A stretch of DNA of 64,000 nucleotides from an uncultured Bacilli bacterium (lineage in GTDB: Bacteria; Bacillota_I; Bacilli_A; RF39; UBA660). The position numbers and the translations under genes were made by a program. The notes under the pieces were generated by a model, which did no database searches, was not told the DNA's origin, and saw only the letters and a list, made by a program, of their open reading frames with translations. Below, piece by piece: positions 7,593 through 58,411 of this stretch. How positions within the stretch are numbered: position 1 is the first letter of the stretch; every line of letters begins with the position of its first letter. The DNA lies in NCBI GenBank assembly GCA_934101645.1, contig CAKORX010000003.1, positions 5,179-69,178 on the forward strand, written 5' to 3'.

Positions 7593-9740
7593 ATGAATAA
7601 TATAATAATTGAAAATATTGCAAATAATTTAAATATAAAGGTATCACAAGTTCAAAAAACTTTAGAACTTTTAAGTGAGGGATGTACAATTCCATTTATT
7701 GCAAGGTATAGAAAAGAAGCCACAGGCGCACTTGATGAAGAACAAATAAGAAAAATAAACGAAGTATATGATTATGAAAATAAGTTATTAGAACGCAAAG
7801 AAAATGTTATAAAACTTATAGACGAAAAAGGATTATTAACCGATGAATTAAAAGATAAAATTATGTCTTCGGAAAAACTTGTCGAAGTTGAAGATTTATA
7901 TAGACCATTTAAAGAAAAAAAGAAAACTAAAGCTACGGATGCAATTAATAATGGTTTAGAACCACTTGCTAAAATGATTATGTCTTTCCCAGTTAAAGGA
8001 AATATTGAACTTTTAGCAGGAAAGTTTGTAAATGATAAAGTTAAAACTATTGATGATGCAGTAACCGGAGCAGGCTACATAATTGCAGAATATATTTCTG
8101 ATAATGCTTATTATAGAAAATGGATAAGAAACTATATATTTAAAAATGGAACGCTAGTAGCTAAAAAGAAAAAAGATGCTATTGATGAGAAAAAAGTTTA
8201 TGAAATGTATTATGATTTTTCTGAAAGCATAAGACTTATTAAGTCATATCGTGTACTTGCAATAAATAGAGCAGAAAAAGAAAAAATAATATCTGTTTCT
8301 TTAAATGTTGATAATGATAAAATAATTAGTTTTTTAGAAGAAAAAATTATTAAAAATAAAGAAAGTTTTGTAGTAAAAATTGTTGAAGATGCAATAAAAG
8401 ATAGCTATAAAAGGCTTATTTATCCAAGTATTGAAAGGGAGATTAGAGCGGAACTTTCTGATACAGCAGAATCTGTTGCAATTAAAAACTTTAGTGAAAA
8501 CTTAAATAATTTACTTTTAACACCACCAATAAAAGATAAGATTGTTTTAGGACTCGATCCTGCATTTAGAACTGGTTGTAAACTTGCAGTATTAAATCCT
8601 GTTGGTAAAGTTCTAACAATTGAGAAGATTTATCCACATGAACCGGTCAATAAATATGAAGAGGCTAAAATTAAAACAATTGATTTAATAAATAAATATA
8701 ATGTAGATATTGTTGCTATTGGTAATGGAACTGCCTCAAGAGAAAGTGAAAGATTTATTATTGATGTTTTAAAAAATGTAAATCATAAAGTTGATTATAT
8801 AATTGTTAGTGAGGCAGGAGCTTCAGTTTATAGTGCATCAAAACTTGCCATAAGTGAATTTCCAAATTTAGTTGTTGAGGAAAGAAGTGCAATAAGTATC
8901 GGTAGAAGACTTCAAGATGCTTTAGCAGAACTTGTAAAAATCGACCCAGAAAGTATTGGTGTAGGATTATATCAACATGATGTTAATGATAAAAAACTTT
9001 CTGAATCACTTGATTTTGTTGTAACAAAAGTTGTAAATGATGTCGGAGTAAATATAAATACCGCTAGTTCTTCACTTTTAAAATATGTTTCTGGAATGAC
9101 AAAGAATTTCATAGATAAAATTATTAATTATCGTGAAAACGAAGGGAAAATTACTTCTAGGGAAGAAATACTAAAAAATAAGTTATTAAGTGCTAAAGCT
9201 TATGAACAAGCAATTGGCTTTATGAGAGTTGAAGGTGGAACTAATCCATTTGATACTACAGATATTCATCCAGAAAGTTATGATGTTGCTAAAAAAATTA
9301 TGGATATTTTAAATATAAGTTATGATGATATAGGTAAAGAAAGTATTTTACCAAAACTTGATAATATAAATGAAGATGAACTAGTTAATCAAACTAAAAG
9401 TGATATTTATACAGTGCAGGGTATTTTAAATTCACTAAAAAAACCCCATAGAGATCCAAGGGATGAAATGCCAAAACCAATTCTTAAAAGTGATATTTTA
9501 GAAATAAAAGATTTAAGTATTGGCATGAAAATTCAAGGAACAGTTCGTAATGTTGTAGACTTTGGAGCATTTGTTGATATTGGACTACATAATGATGGTT
9601 TAATACATATTTCTAAAATGAGTAAAAATTATATTAAACATCCAAGTGAAATTTTGTCAGTTGGAGACATTGTAGATTGCTATGTAATAGGTATTGATAA
9701 AGAAAAAGAGAAAGTAAACCTTTCATTATTTAATGATTAA
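7593..9740 (+). CDS. tex: Tex-like RNA-binding transcription accessory protein (YqgF/HhH/S1 domains)
   Basis: About 715 aa with PFIARYRKE near the N-terminus, a central YqgF-like region, HhH motifs and a C-terminal S1 domain (GTVRNVVDFGAFVDIG). GAGG RBS lies before ATG 7593. Confidence 0.85.
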   Translation: MNNIIIENIANNLNIKVSQVQKTLELLSEGCTIPFIARYRKEATGALDEEQIRKINEVYDYENKLLERKENVIKLIDEKGLLTDELKDKIMSSEKLVEVEDLYRPFKEKKKTKATDAINNGLEPLAKMIMSFPVKGNIELLAGKFVNDKVKTIDDAVTGAGYIIAEYISDNAYYRKWIRNYIFKNGTLVAKKKKDAIDEKKVYEMYYDFSESIRLIKSYRVLAINRAEKEKIISVSLNVDNDKIISFLEEKIIKNKESFVVKIVEDAIKDSYKRLIYPSIEREIRAELSDTAESVAIKNFSENLNNLLLTPPIKDKIVLGLDPAFRTGCKLAVLNPVGKVLTIEKIYPHEPVNKYEEAKIKTIDLINKYNVDIVAIGNGTASRESERFIIDVLKNVNHKVDYIIVSEAGASVYSASKLAISEFPNLVVEERSAISIGRRLQDALAELVKIDPESIGVGLYQHDVNDKKLSESLDFVVTKVVNDVGVNINTASSSLLKYVSGMTKNFIDKIINYRENEGKITSREEILKNKLLSAKAYEQAIGFMRVEGGTNPFDTTDIHPESYDVAKKIMDILNISYDDIGKESILPKLDNINEDELVNQTKSDIYTVQGILNSLKKPHRDPRDEMPKPILKSDILEIKDLSIGMKIQGTVRNVVDFGAFVDIGLHNDGLIHISKMSKNYIKHPSEILSVGDIVDCYVIGIDKEKEKVNLSLFND

Positions 9741-9766
9741 GATAGATAAATTCTATCTTTTTTTCA
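9740..9766 (+). terminator. rho-independent terminator after tex
   Basis: AGATAGA-taaatt-CTATCT hairpin followed by T7. Confidence 0.5.
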
Positions 9767-9786
9767 TATAATCTATTGGTGATAGT

Positions 9787-48910: not shown

Positions 48911-49900
48911 ATGGAAGAAAATAACGATTTTAAAATTGAGTTACCAAAAGTAAATGAAGAAAATAATAATGCATCTGTATCAGAACCAGTTGTGCAAATG
49001 CCTACTATAGAACCTTCTGTACAGCCGGCAATATCTAATGAGCCTACAAGTGAAGTAACTATGGAGCCAGTAGTTGAAACTCCAGTTGTTACAAGTCCAG
49101 AGGTTTCAATGGAAAGTACTCCAGAAACTTATAGTGAACCAGTATCACCGGTTACTATGATGCCAGAAGTTGAAGTTCCAACTGAAGTGCAAACTCCAGT
49201 AGTAGAACAAACTCCAACATCTGTAGAACCTGCGGTACAAATGCCTAGTGTGGAACCAGCTGTGGAGCCAGTAGTTGAAACTCCAGTTGTTACAAGTCCA
49301 GAGATTTCAATGGAAAGCACTCCAGAAACTTATAGTGAACCAGTATCACCGGTTACTATGATGCCAGAAGTTGAAGTTCCATCAGAAGTGCAAACTCCTG
49401 TAGTAGAACAAACTCCAACATCTGTAGAACCAACTATAGATGTAGCTCCTGCAACTTCAGAAATTTCTATGCCTGAAGTTGAAACTCCAGTAAATAGTGA
49501 AGTTACTTCAGCACCAGTAGAACCAGCGCAAACACAAGTAAGTGCACCTGAACAAACTACTTATGAAGCTGTTCAAACTCCAAATGTGGACGTAGCACAA
49601 GAACAACCTTCTGAAATGCAGTCATCTGTTTCAGAACCTGCTACTGAAGTACCTGAAACTCCAGTTTCAACAATTGCGGAAACACCTGCACAACCTGAAC
49701 TAGCACAAAATGTTAATTTTAATCAAACTGCTCCTGTGATGGAAAGTGCTCCTGTTATGGAAGGACAAACAGAAAATAATAATAAAACTGAGTTACCAAA
49801 AGTTAGTAAGCCAGTTAAAATTATTTGTACTGTCGCAGTAATTGTTGTAGCGTTATTGATTATTTACTTTCTTGTAAGAAACTTTTTCTTAGTTAAATAA
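48911..49900 (+). CDS. P/T/E/V-rich low-complexity surface protein with C-terminal TM anchor and internal 67-aa tandem duplication
   Basis: 329 aa. Two near-identical 67-aa repeats (PVVETPVVTSPE[VI]SMESTPETYSEPVSPVTMMPEVEVP[TS]EVQTPVVEQTPTSVEP). C-terminal hydrophobic helix IICTVAVIVVALLIIYFLV. Confidence 0.6.
   Translation: MEENNDFKIELPKVNEENNNASVSEPVVQMPTIEPSVQPAISNEPTSEVTMEPVVETPVVTSPEVSMESTPETYSEPVSPVTMMPEVEVPTEVQTPVVEQTPTSVEPAVQMPSVEPAVEPVVETPVVTSPEISMESTPETYSEPVSPVTMMPEVEVPSEVQTPVVEQTPTSVEPTIDVAPATSEISMPEVETPVNSEVTSAPVEPAQTQVSAPEQTTYEAVQTPNVDVAQEQPSEMQSSVSEPATEVPETPVSTIAETPAQPELAQNVNFNQTAPVMESAPVMEGQTENNNKTELPKVSKPVKIICTVAVIVVALLIIYFLVRNFFLVK
49064..49431 (+). repeat. 201-bp direct tandem duplication (2 copies, >95% identical)
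   Basis: GAGCCAGTAGTTGAAACTCCAGTTGTTACAAGTCCAGAG... at 49064 recurs at 49265 (period 201 bp) with a handful of substitutions. Confidence 0.9.
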
Positions 49901-51486: not shown

Positions 51487-51599
51487 CAATTACATTATAT
51501 CTAAAATATAAAAAAATTCAACTGGTAAATATATGAAATTTTTTCTTGTAAAAATTATAATTGAATGTTAAAATAAGTTTGTAAATCGATTATGAAAGA

Positions 51600-51790
51600 T
51601 TAGTAATAAATATGTTATTTTTAAGAGAGTTAGTGCTTGGTGGAAACTAATAAATAAATATTTATGAATCTACTTTCTAGAAAGTCTAATCAACTTCGGG
51701 TAATTTCCGTTAAAGAATAATTAAGTAATATAAAGGATGGCACCGCAGAATTGCTCCTTAAGGAGTGATTTGGTGTTTTTTTATTGAAAG
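51600..51790 (+). promoter_or_regulatory. T-box riboswitch leader upstream of serS
   Basis: Stem-I-like AGAGAG...GGTGGAAAC, T-box-like AAAGGATGGCACCGCAG at 51733-51749, and a terminator-like hairpin plus T7 before the RBS. Confidence 0.6.
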
Positions 51791-51802
51791 GAAGGATATA
51801 AA

Positions 51803-53092: not shown

Positions 53093-53109
53093 TTAATTTT
53101 GAGTATGAA

Positions 53110-53136
53110 TTACATACTCTTTTTTTTGCTTAAAAT
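53110..53136 (+). terminator. rho-independent terminator after serS
   Basis: GAGTATG-aattac-CATACTC hairpin followed by T8. Confidence 0.7.
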
Positions 53137-53696
53137 TAAGATGTAAAGAACTGTTATGAGTGATTATTATTTATGAGATAGAAATTTATCATATAAAGCA
53201 TATCTTTATTTAATGACCGGGACTATTTTATGGATAGACTTTGTGCAATTAATAAAGAAAGTAGGAATGGTATAAGCTCAATAATAAAAGAATAACCACG
53301 TTTCTTGGAAAAAATAGAAACGAGGTTCATATCAAATTTCTTTATTTTTTTCAGCAATGCCACTTTATGTTTAATTTTTTTAAAGAGGACAAACTAGAAT
53401 TGCTCATGTGATATTGAAAATTATAACGGAAATATATCTGTGGATACCTTTGAAAATATTGGTAGATGTTTAAAAGTAGAATATAATAATGAATATGTTT
53501 CTTTTAACAGTGTTATTTATACTTTAAAAGAAAATAATATTGTATTTATTAATAGTACAAGTGATGATGTTATTTATTTTAATAGAATAAGGTAATTAAA
53601 TAGATAAACAACGTATAAAAACAAATAAATTTTATACATTCTTTTGACGTATAAATAAATCTATGATAGCATATTTATATAGTCACAGGTGAAGTT

Positions 53697-56600
53697 ATGG
53701 GTATATTAGATATTTTAAAAGATAATTTGGTTATATCAAGGATAAGTAGAAAATCAAATTTAGAAATAGAGCAATTAGTTAATTTAACTGATAATCAACT
53801 AAAAAAATTAATGAGCAATAAAGAGATTTATTTGATTGATTTAGGAAAAATATCTTCATATGATTTGCTAAAAAAACTTATTGAACTTTATAAATTTTCA
53901 AAGGATGATTATAAAAGTGTCAGTTTACTTTTAAGTATGGCTGATGAAAAAATGTATAAAATTTTAGAAACAAGCAATGTTTCAAATATTAAAAATAACT
54001 TGTGCGAAGAAAGCATTAAAAAATTTATATCAGAGCCTTCATATACAATAGATATTAATTTATTTTCTGAAGAATTTATAAAGGAACACGATGATATTTT
54101 TCTAGTTAATACGCTTCCGGAAGATATCAGAAAAAAATATTATGAAAAGAAGATTACTGAAAAAGATTTGTTAGATAATATTGAAGTATTGTGTAAGGTA
54201 AAATATCAAAATATAATTTTAGATAACGTAAATTATAAAGATGATAATTCTAAAAATTTTATTTTAAAACTAGGATTAGATGGTTTAGAAAAAATTACTA
54301 GCAATTTAGGAGCAAATTTTTATCGTATTTATAACGATCAAAACAAAATGGAAGAAATGTGTAAATTCCTAGAGCAAAAAAATCCGAATGATTATTATAT
54401 AGGTGTTGTAAATTATTTATATACTGATGAAGAGTTTTTAAGTGCTTTAGGTATTCAGCAATTTAATAATGAACTGAATTTTTATGGTCAATATTATCTT
54501 GAAAAAATAAATAAAAATAATATTAATAAAATAGATTTAACAAATTATTTTAATAAAGTTTTTTCTGATTATCAAAGAGAAAGTAGTTTTTATAATTTTA
54601 TGAAAAATATGATAACTATTTTATCAAGAAATGAAACTATAAATAGTACTGAAGAATTATTTGAAAAAGTGGCAGTAGCTACAGCTAAAGAAAAAGGAGA
54701 TAATTCACAAGAATTTACTAGTGAATTCATAAAAACTCATCAGCAATATTTTTTGCCAAATGATGCTCCAGATACACTTAAAGAAAAATTTTATAATAAA
54801 TCTCTAACATATAAAGATGTATTAGATAATCTTGCATATTTTTCTAATACGAATATATCATTAGCTTTTTTTGATGAAACAGATAATCGATGTGGTTTAT
54901 TTGATAATAATCTTTTTCTAAAGATGCTTCAGATTTGTGATGGTAATTTGAAAAACTTAAATTGCACTTTCTTTGAAAATATTTTATCTCGACCAGATTC
55001 CAAAATTAATTTTATATCATCTTATGATGAATTTTTATCAATATTTGAAAAGTATTATATGAGTAATGGTATACCAATCAAAGATTTTGAGATTTTAAAA
55101 AAGATTGGTTTTAATAAAAGTTATTTAAACGAAATCGAAGAAAATATTAAAAATTATAATCTACAAAAAGATAACATCAAGTGTGATCTTCGTCTTTTTA
55201 CTAATAATATTATGAAAAAATTTGATATTAATATTATAAAAGCACTTATGACTTATTACCATAGTGGAGCTGTTTCTTTATTAATAAATTATAGCAATGA
55301 TGATGTAATTGTAAATAAAATTAATACTTTGCTAGCACTATTAAGTAAAAGCGATAATAATTTTATTAATGGTAAAAATATAAATTATATTATTCTTTCA
55401 TTTGACAAATGTAGAAGTCTTTTTGATAGTATTATAAAAAATAATACTGTTTTAAATGAAGTACAAATAAAAAACTTAAATGATATTTTAGCTAATAGAA
55501 ATAAATATAATATAGAAAATATTGAGCAGTTAACAAATTACAGTACATATAAGAAAAAAATATTAAATGAAAAACTTGAAAGTAGTAATTTGACCGATGT
55601 ACAATCTGCGATTACTGAATGTTTGTTTTCAATCGACAGAGAATCAATTATTGATTTAAATTCTGTTTATGGTATTTTTAAAGATAAAATGTATCTAAAA
55701 AAAATACAGCCATATTTACCTGTTGATATTGCTGCTGCATTAGAAATAATAAAAGAGGTTTATAATAACTCTGATATTAATAATTTAAAAGCAATATTTG
55801 ATAATTGTATGGAGTTAGGAAATGTTGGTATTAATGCTGTACAAATTAAAACAGCTCTTCGAAATGCATATGAAAAACTTTATATTAGTGAATTATTTAA
55901 AGGTGAAGGAAATAGGGAATACTATATAAATGGGGTTAATAGTGATATATGTACTCATAATGTAAATGGTGAAAAAATTTCATCAGAAAATACTATTAAA
56001 GTAGTTGAACTTAATGACAAGCCATTTAAATTAATAGTACATCATATATTTGTTGGTTCACCAGATCCTTTGTTTAAAGATATTCCTAGTAGAATAATTA
56101 AAAATCCTGAAATTTGGAATACTAAAGAGGGAGCAACTACATTATCTACTACCATAATTTCAAATTCTTGTATTAAAACATTTGGTGTAAATCAACCAGG
56201 GTCCCATATATATTATGGATTTAATGAATTACCATTTGATGTTTTAAGAGGTACTTTTCCAGCAGATGCGGGTACTTTACATGGAGGAGGCCAACTTGAG
56301 GCATTAAGTGGTGCCTACCAAATAAATACACTAGATTATTTAATTAATGTTACAACTGCTCATTCACCTTATAATGAAATTGTATTAATGCGAAGAAGTC
56401 CTATTAAAAATAAATTTGATGGTAGAATTCAACCTAATTGTATTGTTACTTTTGATGATAACATTGATGAATATACAAAATTAGCGGCTCAATATTTTAA
56501 TGTTCCAATTTATAAAATTAATTATAATAAGTATTGGGAAATTAATAGGCAAAACATTGATAAATATTTAAATGGAAAAATAGAAAAATTTGATAATGAT

Positions 56601-56855
56601 GATATAGAAATGATTTTTTCTACTGATTTTGGAAGTTTAAATAGAAATGTAAACAAAGTAGAAATGTGTATTCAACTATTAAAAAAAGCACTAAATGAAA
56701 ATCTAATAAATAATGAACAATATTATGATAGGGTGCAACATATTTTAGATTATGTTGAGGAGAATGGTATAATAATACAACCAGATGATTTAATCAAACT
56801 TAATAGCATTTTAAGTAATAGAATTGAGGTGAATGAAAATGAACTTACAAAATGA
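53697..56855 (+). CDS. 1052-aa orphan protein with internal repeats and an unassigned C-terminal globular domain
   Basis: Long uninterrupted ORF. Repeat units SEEFIKEHDDIFLVNTLPEDIRKKYYEKKITEKDLLDN (aa ~124-166) and SEFIKTHQQYFLPNDAPDTLKEKFYNKSLTYKDVLDN (aa ~342-382). The C-terminal ~270 aa has different composition (HHIFVGSPDP...STTIISNS...HGGGQLEALSGAY...). Confidence 0.55.
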   Translation: MGILDILKDNLVISRISRKSNLEIEQLVNLTDNQLKKLMSNKEIYLIDLGKISSYDLLKKLIELYKFSKDDYKSVSLLLSMADEKMYKILETSNVSNIKNNLCEESIKKFISEPSYTIDINLFSEEFIKEHDDIFLVNTLPEDIRKKYYEKKITEKDLLDNIEVLCKVKYQNIILDNVNYKDDNSKNFILKLGLDGLEKITSNLGANFYRIYNDQNKMEEMCKFLEQKNPNDYYIGVVNYLYTDEEFLSALGIQQFNNELNFYGQYYLEKINKNNINKIDLTNYFNKVFSDYQRESSFYNFMKNMITILSRNETINSTEELFEKVAVATAKEKGDNSQEFTSEFIKTHQQYFLPNDAPDTLKEKFYNKSLTYKDVLDNLAYFSNTNISLAFFDETDNRCGLFDNNLFLKMLQICDGNLKNLNCTFFENILSRPDSKINFISSYDEFLSIFEKYYMSNGIPIKDFEILKKIGFNKSYLNEIEENIKNYNLQKDNIKCDLRLFTNNIMKKFDINIIKALMTYYHSGAVSLLINYSNDDVIVNKINTLLALLSKSDNNFINGKNINYIILSFDKCRSLFDSIIKNNTVLNEVQIKNLNDILANRNKYNIENIEQLTNYSTYKKKILNEKLESSNLTDVQSAITECLFSIDRESIIDLNSVYGIFKDKMYLKKIQPYLPVDIAAALEIIKEVYNNSDINNLKAIFDNCMELGNVGINAVQIKTALRNAYEKLYISELFKGEGNREYYINGVNSDICTHNVNGEKISSENTIKVVELNDKPFKLIVHHIFVGSPDPLFKDIPSRIIKNPEIWNTKEGATTLSTTIISNSCIKTFGVNQPGSHIYYGFNELPFDVLRGTFPADAGTLHGGGQLEALSGAYQINTLDYLINVTTAHSPYNEIVLMRRSPIKNKFDGRIQPNCIVTFDDNIDEYTKLAAQYFNVPIYKINYNKYWEINRQNIDKYLNGKIEKFDNDDIEMIFSTDFGSLNRNVNKVEMCIQLLKKALNENLINNEQYYDRVQHILDYVEENGIIIQPDDLIKLNSILSNRIEVNENELTK

Positions 56856-57009
56856 TGAACTAACAAAAGATGAAAAACTTGTTTATCTATTAAATAAAAT
56901 CGAAGAAGATAGCAATTGTAATCCTCATAAAGAAGTAATAAATGATTTAAAAATGAAACTAATATTAAAGATGAATACTGATATAGAATCTTTAGATGAT
57001 AAAAATTAA
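56839..57009 (+). CDS. possible 56-aa small ORF overlapping the 3' end of the 1052-aa gene
   Basis: GAGGTGA RBS 6 nt upstream of ATG 56839, giving MNLQNDELTKDEKLVYLLNKIEEDSNCNPHKEVINDLKMKLILKMNTDIESLDDKN. Not in the supplied track. Confidence 0.3.
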   Translation: MNLQNDELTKDEKLVYLLNKIEEDSNCNPHKEVINDLKMKLILKMNTDIESLDDKN

Positions 57010-57189: not shown

Positions 57190-57218
57190 TTGCAATTTTT
57201 TAATGTAATATTTATAAT
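57190..57218 (+). promoter_or_regulatory. putative promoter of the antitoxin/toxin pair
   Basis: TTGCAA (57190-57195), 17 nt spacer, TATAAT (57213-57218), about 30 nt before ATG 57250. Confidence 0.45.
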
Positions 57219-57249: not shown

Positions 57250-57726
57250 ATGTTAACAGCAAAGGACGTGGCAGAATACTTTCTTTCTAAAGATCCAAAT
57301 AAAAAAATATTTAACAAAAATATTATGATTTATAATGGAATAAGATTTTATGAAGGAAATGTAAAATTAAATAAGTATCTATTTTTATCTCAAGTTGTAT
57401 ATCTAGCAAAATATGGAAAAAAATTATTTGAAGATGATTTTATTGCTTATGATAATGGACCTGTAATTGAAAAAATAAGAAATCTTTATGTAAGACTTAA
57501 AGGACGTAATAGTCATATTAATTTACAAACTAAAATTTTTTTAGACAAAATATATTTGTCACTTGAAAATGCTACAACACAGGAACTAATTGAAATAAGT
57601 CATGAAGATCCAGAATGGCAACGCTTAAAAAATATGACCCATAAAAATATTAAAATGGATGTTGAAAGTAATATCAAAGAATATAAAGAAAGATATGAAG
57701 GATTAATAAAAGCCTTAAAAATATGA
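57250..57726 (+). CDS. Panacea-domain (DUF4065, SocA-like) putative antitoxin
   Basis: MLTAKDVAEYFLSK...KLNKYLFLSQVVYLAKYGKKLFEDDFIAYDNGPVIEKI...HEDPEWQRLK matches the SocA/DUF4065 pattern (ALDVAAYIL...KLQKLLYYAQAWSL...PLFDE.IEAW.NGPVV...AEDPWR). AAGGAG RBS lies before ATG 57250. Confidence 0.7.
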   Translation: MLTAKDVAEYFLSKDPNKKIFNKNIMIYNGIRFYEGNVKLNKYLFLSQVVYLAKYGKKLFEDDFIAYDNGPVIEKIRNLYVRLKGRNSHINLQTKIFLDKIYLSLENATTQELIEISHEDPEWQRLKNMTHKNIKMDVESNIKEYKERYEGLIKALKI

Positions 57727-58145
57727 TTAATAAATTAAAAGTTGGTCAAGTGTTATGGCTTAAAGTTAGGTATCAGAGTAATTTGGTATCTATGACTAAA
57801 CATCCTATGCTTATAGCAAAAATAAAATATGGTTATATTGAAGTTATTGCATTAGATAAAATAAAAGGAAAATTACAAAATTTATATTATCCATATAATT
57901 ATTTTATTGATTCGGATAATCCTAAAGAGACTGTTTTATATGAAGATAGTTATGCTCAGTTAAATACAAAATTAACTATAGAGTTTTTTCCAGAATTACT
58001 ATTATTTAGAAAAACTACGTCAGTTTTATCAAAAGTAAAATTAAATGAATTATTAAAGGCTTATAGAAAATATCAAAGAAAATATGGGATAAAAAGTGAA
58101 AGAATAATTTATATGTCAAAAAAAGATATTCAAAAATTTAATTAA
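57723..58145 (+). CDS. uncharacterised 140-aa protein, putative cognate toxin (possible MazF/PemK-like barrel)
   Basis: Overlaps the antitoxin stop by 4 nt (ATGA). Residues ...VGQVLWLKVRY...KHPMLIAKI...IEVIALDKIKGK...YFIDS...LSKVKLNELLKAYRKY follow the MazF/PemK beta-strand pattern, but only loosely. Confidence 0.4.
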   Translation: MINKLKVGQVLWLKVRYQSNLVSMTKHPMLIAKIKYGYIEVIALDKIKGKLQNLYYPYNYFIDSDNPKETVLYEDSYAQLNTKLTIEFFPELLLFRKTTSVLSKVKLNELLKAYRKYQRKYGIKSERIIYMSKKDIQKFN

Positions 58146-58195: not shown

Positions 58196-58411
58196 ATGGA
58201 AAATTTAATTGGTTATAAAAATAAATTAATTGGTATTAGAAATGAAATCCTTGAGTCGTTAAAAAGTGCAGAAAGTAAAGATGAAATGAGAAATTTTTTA
58301 ATAAAACTTCATAATGTAAATGAAAGAATTAAAAATGTAGAAATTAAAATTCAAGAAGAACAAAGAGAAAGTCAAAGAAGTGGTAGTAGTCATTTTGGAC
58401 TATTTAAATAA
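58196..58411 (+). CDS. hypothetical 71-aa coiled-coil protein
   Basis: GGAGGG RBS. Predicted helical/coiled coil. No family. Confidence 0.35.
   Translation: MENLIGYKNKLIGIRNEILESLKSAESKDEMRNFLIKLHNVNERIKNVEIKIQEEQRESQRSGSSHFGLFK

Follow-up and report, generated by a model that had tools for sequence, protein, structure and literature searches.

The 64,000-nt stretch of DNA analysed here (hereafter the window; contig CAKORX010000003.1), from an uncultured Bacilli bacterium, carries a two-gene operon with its own promoter, extending from 53644 to 57009, which we call the cassette. The first gene encodes a 1052-amino acid (aa) protein with a C-terminal domain that, according to structure models, very probably has the fold of ADP-ribosyltransferases (ART). 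The second gene encodes a conserved 56-aa protein, and it was kept in natural populations where the large gene was lost. The explanation we favour, tentatively and with slightly less than even confidence, is that the large protein is an intracellular ART, or an NADase, regulated by its microprotein in the way an antidote restrains a toxin. The components of the cassette are as follows (HMM: hidden Markov model; dN/dS: ratio of nonsynonymous to synonymous substitution rates).

53644..53672, + strand: cassette promoter, sigma-70-type (-35 TTGACG at 53644-53649, 17-nt spacer, TG at 53664-53665, -10 TAGCAT at 53667-53672)
53697..56855, + strand: large gene, 1052 aa, ATG start; predicted cytoplasmic multi-module protein with the ART-fold domain in its C-terminal part
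54051..54194, + strand: repeat motif copy 1, aa 119-166, FSEEFIKEHDDIFLVNTLPEDIRKKYYEKKITEKDLLDN; opens module 1 (aa ~119-335)
54702..54845, + strand: repeat motif copy 2, aa 336-383, FTSEFIKTHQQYFLPNDAPDTLKEKFYNKSLTYKDVLDN; opens module 2 (aa ~336-490)
55077..55913, + strand: middle domain, aa 461-739, fold unassigned; delimited by segment HMM architecture and profile-hit coverage
55914..56576, + strand: predicted ART-fold domain, aa 740-960, with conserved H782 (codon 56040-56042), S817-T818-T819, D857, E894 and R899
56577..56852, + strand: C-terminal helical tail, aa 961-1052, ~4 helices, modelled confidently with the ART core
56839..57009, + strand: small partner gene, 56 aa, found in nine lineages, dN/dS 0.28

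The open reading frame (ORF) of the large gene is the one called by the initial annotation, a first reading made from the letters of the DNA (53697-56855, + strand, 1052 aa from an ATG). The promoter was found by a promoter scan and is conserved in the upstream alignment of four lineages. It is followed by a ribosome-binding site for the large gene (AGGTGA, 53687-53692).

An ADP-ribosyltransferase fold is predicted for the C-terminal domain

The large protein had no match in Pfam, NCBIfam, PADLOC or PHROGs, the sole NCBIfam row being far under the cut-off, and neither the protein nor the profiles of its family matched a PDB sequence. The single source name on record for a homologue is "hypothetical protein". 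Two independent AF2 models of the C-terminal region, both built from a 37-sequence alignment of the ART domain, were obtained with high scores (pLDDT 91.0 and pTM 0.88 for aa 740-1052; pLDDT 90.9 and pTM 0.89 for aa 738-965). The fold that they show is very probably that of an ART. The suggestion of the initial annotation that this region might be an ADP-ribosyltransferase, to be checked by structure prediction, was right at the level of the fold. Structure comparison recognised the split beta-sheet core of the ART superfamily in the domain, with the following matches and scores.

CteC: 7.9 (top match)
DarT, four chains: 4.3-4.8
Tpt1/KptA, three chains: 3.9, 3.2 and 2.5
Salmonella effector crystallised with NAD (7dn9): 3.1
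RES-domain toxin: 2.3
OspC3: 2.2
PARP-1: 2.2
Rhs ART toxin TreTu: 2.0

A Foldseek search against the PDB returned nothing significant; its first entry was DarT (E-value 0.22), a weak corroboration only. The profiles of the ART domain showed no sequence-level link to any characterised ART family. Two other matches were not used as evidence: NADase_NGA (E-value 0.046), obtained with only one of the 37 members, and the ribosomal protein uS2 (E-value 0.3), a weak match to the last beta-alpha-beta unit. The predicted fold relates the domain structurally to the NAD-using ADP-ribosyltransferase toxins, and would imply that it uses NAD+.

Conserved residues form a hybrid pattern

The family has the signature H782 / S817-T-(S/T) / D857 / E894 / R899. 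D857 is invariant among the 118 domain sequences (118/118), E894 and R899 are each conserved in 115, S817 in 114 and H782 in 110, with T, Y or S in the remainder. The whole H-S-D-E-R set is complete in 108 of these domains. Three sequences jointly lack H, E and R, and two of the three lack S as well; such joint loss would be typical of residues that belong to one working active site. E894 is preceded by Y/H-N ("YNE"), and the spacing of the residues is H-35-S-40-D-37-E. In the AF2 model, H782 lies within a strand, the next long strand starts with S817, and a later one with E894. As modelled, this is the layout of the canonical ART strand-1, strand-2 and strand-5 positions. The domain thus displays the residues known at fold level in the superfamily, where strand 1 has R or H, strand 2 has S-T-S or Y, and strand 5 starts with an acidic residue.

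The conserved positions point to a hybrid H-S-(D)-E pattern that fits neither of the two clades compared. Relative to the R-S-E clade (cholera-toxin-like, ARTC), the strand-1 position is His in 110 of the 118 sequences and [Q/E]-x-E is absent. Relative to the H-Y-E clade (diphtheria-toxin-like, ARTD), the domain has the H and the E, but S-T-S/T in place of the Tyr on strand 2. The initial annotation had tentatively read an R-S-E enzyme from an Arg (R799, "IPSRII"), an S-T-T and a Q-x-E (Q866/E868). Its only correct residue motif was the S-T-T, which is the conserved S817-T-T. In homologues at 44-52% identity R799 is replaced by K or another residue, whereas the positions of Q866 and E868 hold K/L/R and K/D/E. 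We rejected these residues because they vary among close homologues, and with them the R-S-E assignment, since there is neither a strand-1 Arg nor a [Q/E]-x-E. As the conserved positions are H782, S817, D857, E894 and R899, the domain is not that of a canonical R-S-E enzyme.

One might argue that the ART-like fold is a catalytically inactive relic and that the protein has a structural or scaffolding role, given that the canonical R and Q/E-x-E positions are missing and that no sequence-level link ties the domain to a characterised ART family. Yet, the five polar residues, at what would be canonical catalytic positions, are near-invariant over 118 diverged domains and H, E and R were lost together in three. 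Furthermore, comparison with the 86%-identical orthologue gave a dN/dS of 0.20 for the ART domain and 0.26 for the whole large gene, the dN of the ART domain being the lowest within the gene. We find a relic barely conceivable.

The conserved partner is a 56-aa protein

The small gene overlaps the final 17-23 nt of the large gene in a different frame and is preceded by its own ribosome-binding site (GAGGTGA, 56826-56832). Translation probably starts at the ATG at 56839 (56 aa), in agreement with the gene calls of sister assemblies (L037-L039), although an alternative ATG at 56833 would give 58 aa. An overlapping small ORF, with a ribosome-binding site of its own, was found in nine lineages with differing neighbourhoods, down to relatives with 32-39% identity in the ART domain, and the arrangement recurs in every lineage holding the close family. 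The small proteins form 46 clusters, all of 53-80 aa. Their alignment shows a front LT-x-EEK-L-x-Y/F-L-L-N/D, followed by a second amphipathic stretch. The dN/dS of the small gene (0.28 vs 0.26 for the large gene) shows that both genes are under purifying selection. The initial annotation had placed the large gene directly upstream of a PanA toxin-antitoxin pair. The pair does lie downstream, but the conserved 56-aa gene, which that annotation missed, lies in between. It is this 56-aa gene, and not the PanA pair, that is the conserved partner of the large gene.

The large gene has been inactivated independently in three alleles, by a nonsense mutation at codon 623 (L033), a 35-bp deletion with a 1-bp insertion in three separate samples (L034-L036), and a nonsense mutation near codon 566 in a 52%-identical lineage (L020). 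The small ORF is intact in all of them, and the large gene is therefore dispensable and repeatedly lost with its partner kept. Fragments of the large gene form clusters of 96 and 23 member sequences. Such asymmetric loss is expected if the small protein counteracts the enzyme, and with three cases it is suggestive, not conclusive. In its arrangement and population data, and in these only, the cassette resembles a type II toxin-antitoxin system, with an overlapping, translationally coupled partner that is kept where the large gene is inactivated.

In the CAG:472-type locus L013 two tandem small genes (9176-9768; 94 and 99 aa, each with an MNN start) follow the small partner gene. They were found in this lineage only.

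The large protein combines repeat modules with a widely shared domain

The initial annotation had noticed internal ~40-aa repeats 218 residues apart and had proposed that they reflect a duplicated, putatively helical module. The homology is real, although the offset is 217 and not 218: the alignment of aa 123-162 with aa 340-379 has a Smith-Waterman score of 113, vs 31.5 ± 6.0 (maximum 55) in 500 shuffles, and no other off-diagonal signal in the protein comes close to it. The duplication of a module was borne out over ~150 aa by profile-profile comparison (hhalign, aa 120-297 vs 337-490, probability 88%, E-value 2.9e-6). Both copies of the repeat are conserved in every full-length homologue. 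The motif FIKxH...KDxLDN occurs two to four times in relatives, with a spacing of ~145 aa in several of them. Five proteins of 824-1604 aa (P0125, P0133, P0138, P0144 and P0146) carry two to four such modules with no ART domain and no Pfam domain. Hence, the N-terminal repeat module also pairs with other C-terminal regions. The C-terminal region had been described as compositionally distinct, and this is visible in the DNA: the G+C content (GC) is 0.276 over aa 740-960 vs 0.217 over aa 1-739.

The large protein had been called an orphan. This is a fair description of its close homologues, which form only five clusters in a word-indexed search (94, 86, 52, 52 and 44% identity), but not of the protein as a whole. 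An exhaustive HMM search with an alignment of the large protein and these homologues retrieved 259 representative proteins at E ≤ 1e-3, of which 114 at E ≤ 1e-10, so that the protein belongs to a sizeable unannotated family. The word-indexed search, when queried with the ART-domain alignment, gave four proteins only. The part common to the relatives is a domain of ~190 aa, equivalent to aa ~764-950, often preceded by the middle domain and often forming the very end of proteins that are 250-2200 aa long. According to the segment HMM architectures, the middle domain accompanies the ART domain in ~40 of the 154 relatives examined, and among the relatives with an ART domain this end is widely shared while the N-terminal region is variable. 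The only recurrent known domain in the 103 relatives scanned with Pfam was DUF4116 (9/103).

This architecture bears on whether the large protein could be an exported effector, or an interbacterial polymorphic toxin to which the 56-aa protein would confer immunity. CteC, which ranks first among the structural matches, is a secreted effector; the ART domain is often at the extreme C-terminus of long proteins; and a small gene directly downstream, with a putative counteracting function, occupies the classical position of an immunity gene. However, the large protein has no signal peptide and no transmembrane segment (maximum Kyte-Doolittle-19 hydropathy 0.98), and the Pfam scan found no LXG, RHS, WXG or other secretion or trafficking domain in it or in the 103 relatives. 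It is thus predicted to be cytoplasmic. Moreover, its ART domain is followed by the 92-aa tail and is not at the end of the protein. There are no variable toxin ends on a conserved stem: a shared ART end with a variable N-terminus is the reverse of the usual polymorphic-toxin pattern. No secretion-system genes were present in the neighbourhoods inspected. We regard export as very improbable.

The genomic context of the cassette varies between lineages

The region upstream of the cassette contains two further features.

53101..53119, + strand: serS terminator, an intrinsic-terminator-like hairpin with a T-run found by a terminator scan; left limit of the unit
53476..53589, + strand: remnant of a ClpC-like AAA+ gene, 114 bp, the last ~40 codons of a 594-aa gene (tblastn, 85% over 40 aa)

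The 600-bp non-coding gap reported in the initial annotation is present, but it is not empty, as it holds the terminator, the remnant and the cassette promoter. The window DNA is homologous to the locus of the 'Mycoplasma sp. CAG:472' type from 53475 to 57003. The left end of this homology is the remnant, and the gap thus consists of the serS terminator, unrelated sequence, a pseudogene fragment and the promoter. The remnant sits inside a spurious 51-aa ORF (53440-53595), which sister assemblies annotate as a 51-aa gene. The complete 594-aa gene (Clp_N and one AAA+ domain) lies directly upstream of the cassette in the CAG:472 lineage. We rejected an obligatory three-gene system with the AAA+ protein because this gene is intact only in that lineage, a remnant in the window and absent elsewhere. 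Rfam gave no match at E ≤ 1 in the gap and the locus. The region upstream of serS (51490-51802) has no T-box leader or other Rfam family at the gathering threshold.

The host is an uncultured spore-forming Bacilli of the human gut, with SpoVA genes nearby, as well as a sigma factor next to a STAS-domain gene. The window has a 99% match to a metagenome-assembled genome of the Hadza gut, and its 86% relative is 'Mycoplasma sp. CAG:472'. The neighbourhoods differ between lineages.

Window species: serS, cassette, PanA pair
L001: uvrB, cassette, ireB-ruvX
L005: sigma-70 gene, cassette, glycosyltransferases
L008 / 'Mycoplasma sp. CAG:472': ClpC-like AAA+ gene, cassette, unknown genes and lexA
L022 / L040: Gly-rich protein, cassette, holin-like gene and lgt
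L042: lipase-like gene, cassette, rpmE and alr
L021, L024, L029, L030: further contexts

Vertical descent with rearrangement accounts for these differing locations as well as mobility does. We found no flanking terminal repeats, either direct or inverted, other than chance matches in AT-rich sequence, no integrase or transposase adjacent to the cassette in the window, and no relatives of the large protein in the viral contigs searched. The initial annotation had suggested a comparison of GC with the flanks. The large gene is no outlier: its GC of 0.23 is within one standard deviation of the genes of the window (0.255 ± 0.038). The idea that the cassette is a mobile element was rejected as unproven, given the lack of flanking repeats and of viral copies and the ordinary GC. 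Next to a distant relative of the ART family (L028:1540-5301; 1253 aa, locus GC 0.38) lie genes for a large serine recombinase and a primase-like protein, so that one or more members of the family may sit on an integrative element.

These contexts also inform the possibility of an anti-phage role by abortive infection. The repeat modules would sense a phage component and release the ART domain, leading to ADP-ribosylation of DNA, RNA or protein, or to NAD+ depletion, as in DarTG or CmdTAC. DarT is indeed among the best structural matches of the fold, the N-terminus is repetitive, sensor-like and shuffled among relatives, the large gene is often inactivated in populations, the cassette adjoins the PanA pair in the window and the ClpC-like gene in the CAG:472 lineage, and one relative lies beside a serine recombinase. 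On the other hand, neither protein of the cassette matches the PADLOC v2 defence models and the cassette is not located in a defence island. The neighbours are not defence genes: the PADLOC matches among the neighbours of eight further loci are, on our reading of their summary, cross-matches caused by domains of generic types (ABC/SMC ATPase, ThiF-like E1 and protease). The absence of viral copies and of presence/absence polymorphism within the species, together with a PanA adjacency restricted to the species of the window, further argue against such a role. We consider it unlikely, though less so than export.

Comparison with known ADP-ribosyltransferase systems

CteC of Chromobacterium violaceum is a ubiquitin-Thr66 mono-ADP-ribosyltransferase (PDB 8ux2) with the catalytic residues R65, S97, D134 and E220, a 38-aa insertion before E220, and in D134 an additional catalytic acid that contacts the nicotinamide ribose (PMC10810742). 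The order and spacing of H782, S817, D857 and E894 resemble those of these four residues, including the extra Asp. The differences are nonetheless substantial. The identity of CteC to the ART domain is 12% with no profile-level sequence match, its strand 1 carries Arg where the ART domain has His, and its strands 4 and 5 are separated by a four-helix ubiquitin-recruiting insertion where the ART domain has one helix. In addition, CteC is an effector of ~270 aa that a Gram-negative pathogen exports by type III secretion, whereas our domain is the C-terminal part of a 1052-aa, predicted cytoplasmic protein of gut Bacilli that comes with a microprotein. Hence, with no detectable sequence homology and no four-helix insertion, the domain does not belong to the CteC family.

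DarT, the DNA ADP-ribosyltransferase of the DarTG toxin-antitoxin systems, is like the large protein an intracellular ART encoded beside a cognate partner gene. Its antitoxin DarG is a macrodomain protein of ~350 aa, whereas the partner here has 56 aa; we found no macrodomain or other Pfam domain in the small protein and no macrodomain in the flanking genes. Furthermore, DarT is a standalone protein of ~210 aa, with a different motif pattern and no sequence similarity to our ART domain. CmdTAC consists of an mRNA ADP-ribosyltransferase toxin, an antitoxin and a SecB-like chaperone, and the likeness is conceptual: a small labile partner keeps an intracellular ART inactive, and there is a link to a protease or chaperone (PMC11618068). 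The ClpC-like AAA+ gene directly upstream of the cassette in one lineage offers a parallel. Yet, relative to CmdTAC as described there, the cassette lacks the SecB-like chaperone, and most lineages have lost the AAA+ gene or have it in degraded form only. Its architecture, with a 740-aa N-terminal region, appears unrelated and it has no PADLOC match, the comparison with CmdTAC being one of descriptions and not of sequences or structures. Finally, the Tpt1/KptA proteins are RNA 2'-phosphotransferases of the H-H-h clade of the ART superfamily. They lack the S-T-S and catalytic Glu pattern, and are housekeeping RNA-repair enzymes with another domain context.

Overall, the cassette would work most like ART toxin modules of the DarTG or CmdTAC type, and looks structurally most like CteC. 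It is a member of none of these groups, as it lacks a macrodomain, a chaperone, the canonical R and Q/E-x-E and the ubiquitin-recruiting insertion, and its sequences have no detectable homology to theirs.

A model for the function of the cassette

If the large protein and its partner act as a toxin-antidote pair, the ART domain would most likely bind NAD+ and then either ADP-ribosylate an intracellular target, protein or nucleic acid, or hydrolyse NAD+. The proposed active site would comprise H782 on strand 1, S817-T-T at the start of strand 2, D857, E894 at the start of strand 5, and R899. The 56-aa protein, translationally coupled and presumably made in stoichiometric amounts, would bind the large protein, probably at the region of the ART domain and tail, and, in the role of an antidote or a regulator, restrain or tune the enzyme. 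A scaffold made up of the N-terminal repeat modules and the middle domain would recognise the target or the trigger. The cassette may act as an addiction module, in abortive defence or as a physiological switch.

Several observations weigh against this model. The order of the genes, with the enzyme first, and the size of the large protein are atypical of classical toxin-antitoxin pairs. The small protein matches no known antitoxin or immunity family in Pfam, NCBIfam, PADLOC or PHROGs, its ORF is absent in four more distant relatives, and its link with the ART domain is a proposal. The residue-by-residue equivalence of H782, S817, D857 and E894 with the residues of CteC is likewise putative. 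In at least ten lineages the neighbours are mostly housekeeping genes, judging from their Pfam content. The cassette is found at the same place in all of the 23 contigs read with an identical SerS, so that the presence/absence polymorphism contemplated in the initial annotation does not occur within the species. Lastly, the large protein of the window is 52% identical to that of L001, whereas sporulation proteins of the two are 43-46% identical. Fixation, sporulation-like divergence and housekeeping context agree with a physiological function specific to the lineage no less well than with an antidote-controlled toxin. The initial framing of the locus as one of polymorphic toxins, effectors or defence is unsupported in view of the fixation and the housekeeping context, and also because trafficking domains are lacking and the ART end is shared while the N-terminus varies.

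The physiological alternative is a non-toxic, lineage-specific regulatory ADP-ribosyltransferase acting on an endogenous target, for which the 56-aa protein would serve as cofactor, adaptor or substrate-specificity subunit. Besides the observations just listed, its presence in several deeply diverged lineages, the purifying selection on both genes, the unremarkable GC and the lack of flanking repeats and other hallmarks of mobile elements agree with such an enzyme. However, independent pseudogenisation of the large gene, on at least three occasions in natural populations, shows it to be dispensable. Neither does a regulatory role predict that the large gene is lost with the small one kept; the position of the cassette is different in every lineage, and CteC and DarT, which come nearest in structure, act as toxins or effectors. 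We consider a regulatory enzyme somewhat unlikely, and the toxin-antidote model remains the one we favour.

A bolder reading is that the domain represents a new ART clade, with a hybrid H / S-T-S / D / E / R site between the H-Y-E and R-S-E clades, and is part of a novel two-component module in which a ~1000-aa sensor-enzyme with repeat modules is controlled by a translationally coupled 56-aa microprotein, the target and the trigger being unlike those of DarTG, CmdTAC and the secreted ART toxins. We think this somewhat unlikely. If the favoured model is true, a biochemical function open to testing, NAD+-dependent ADP-ribosylation or NAD+ hydrolysis, could be given to at least 259 clusters of "hypothetical" proteins that are common in Bacilli of the human gut and of other low-GC metagenomes, and the unusual H-S-D-E-R active site would define a further branch of the ART superfamily. 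The 56-aa partner would be a concrete example of a functional microprotein missed by gene-centred annotation, as it was by the initial one. This would not be a conceptual surprise, since ART enzymes with small neutralising partners are already an established theme.

Other genes in the window

The PanA pair was correctly recognised in the initial annotation, as confirmed by its SocA_Panacea domain.

57250-57726 and 57723-58145, + strand: PanA pair, SocA_Panacea, E-value 3.5e-13

The pair is a separate operon, located after the cassette and a 240-bp spacer with a promoter-like site. It adjoins the cassette in the species of the window, and in no other lineage inspected. The start of PanA is most likely the ATG at 57250 (158 aa), which follows the ribosome-binding site AAGGAGA, and not the TTG at 57190. 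The 140-aa partner of PanA, whose gene overlaps that of PanA by 4 nt, had no match in Pfam, NCBIfam, PADLOC or PHROGs; it is therefore a candidate for a new Panacea-associated toxin. A 71-aa ORF (58196-58411, + strand), conserved in L037-L039, lies between the pair and a marR/ABC-transporter operon.

Further upstream, a gene at 48911-49900 (+ strand) encodes a 329-aa low-complexity protein rich in Pro, Glu, Thr and Val, with a C-terminal transmembrane anchor and a GC of 0.35-0.37 (vs 0.25 for the window). A 201-bp tandem repeat lies within the gene (49062-49431; 1.8 copies, 97% identity), and strains that share an identical SerS differ in the length of the product (170, 325 or 329 aa).

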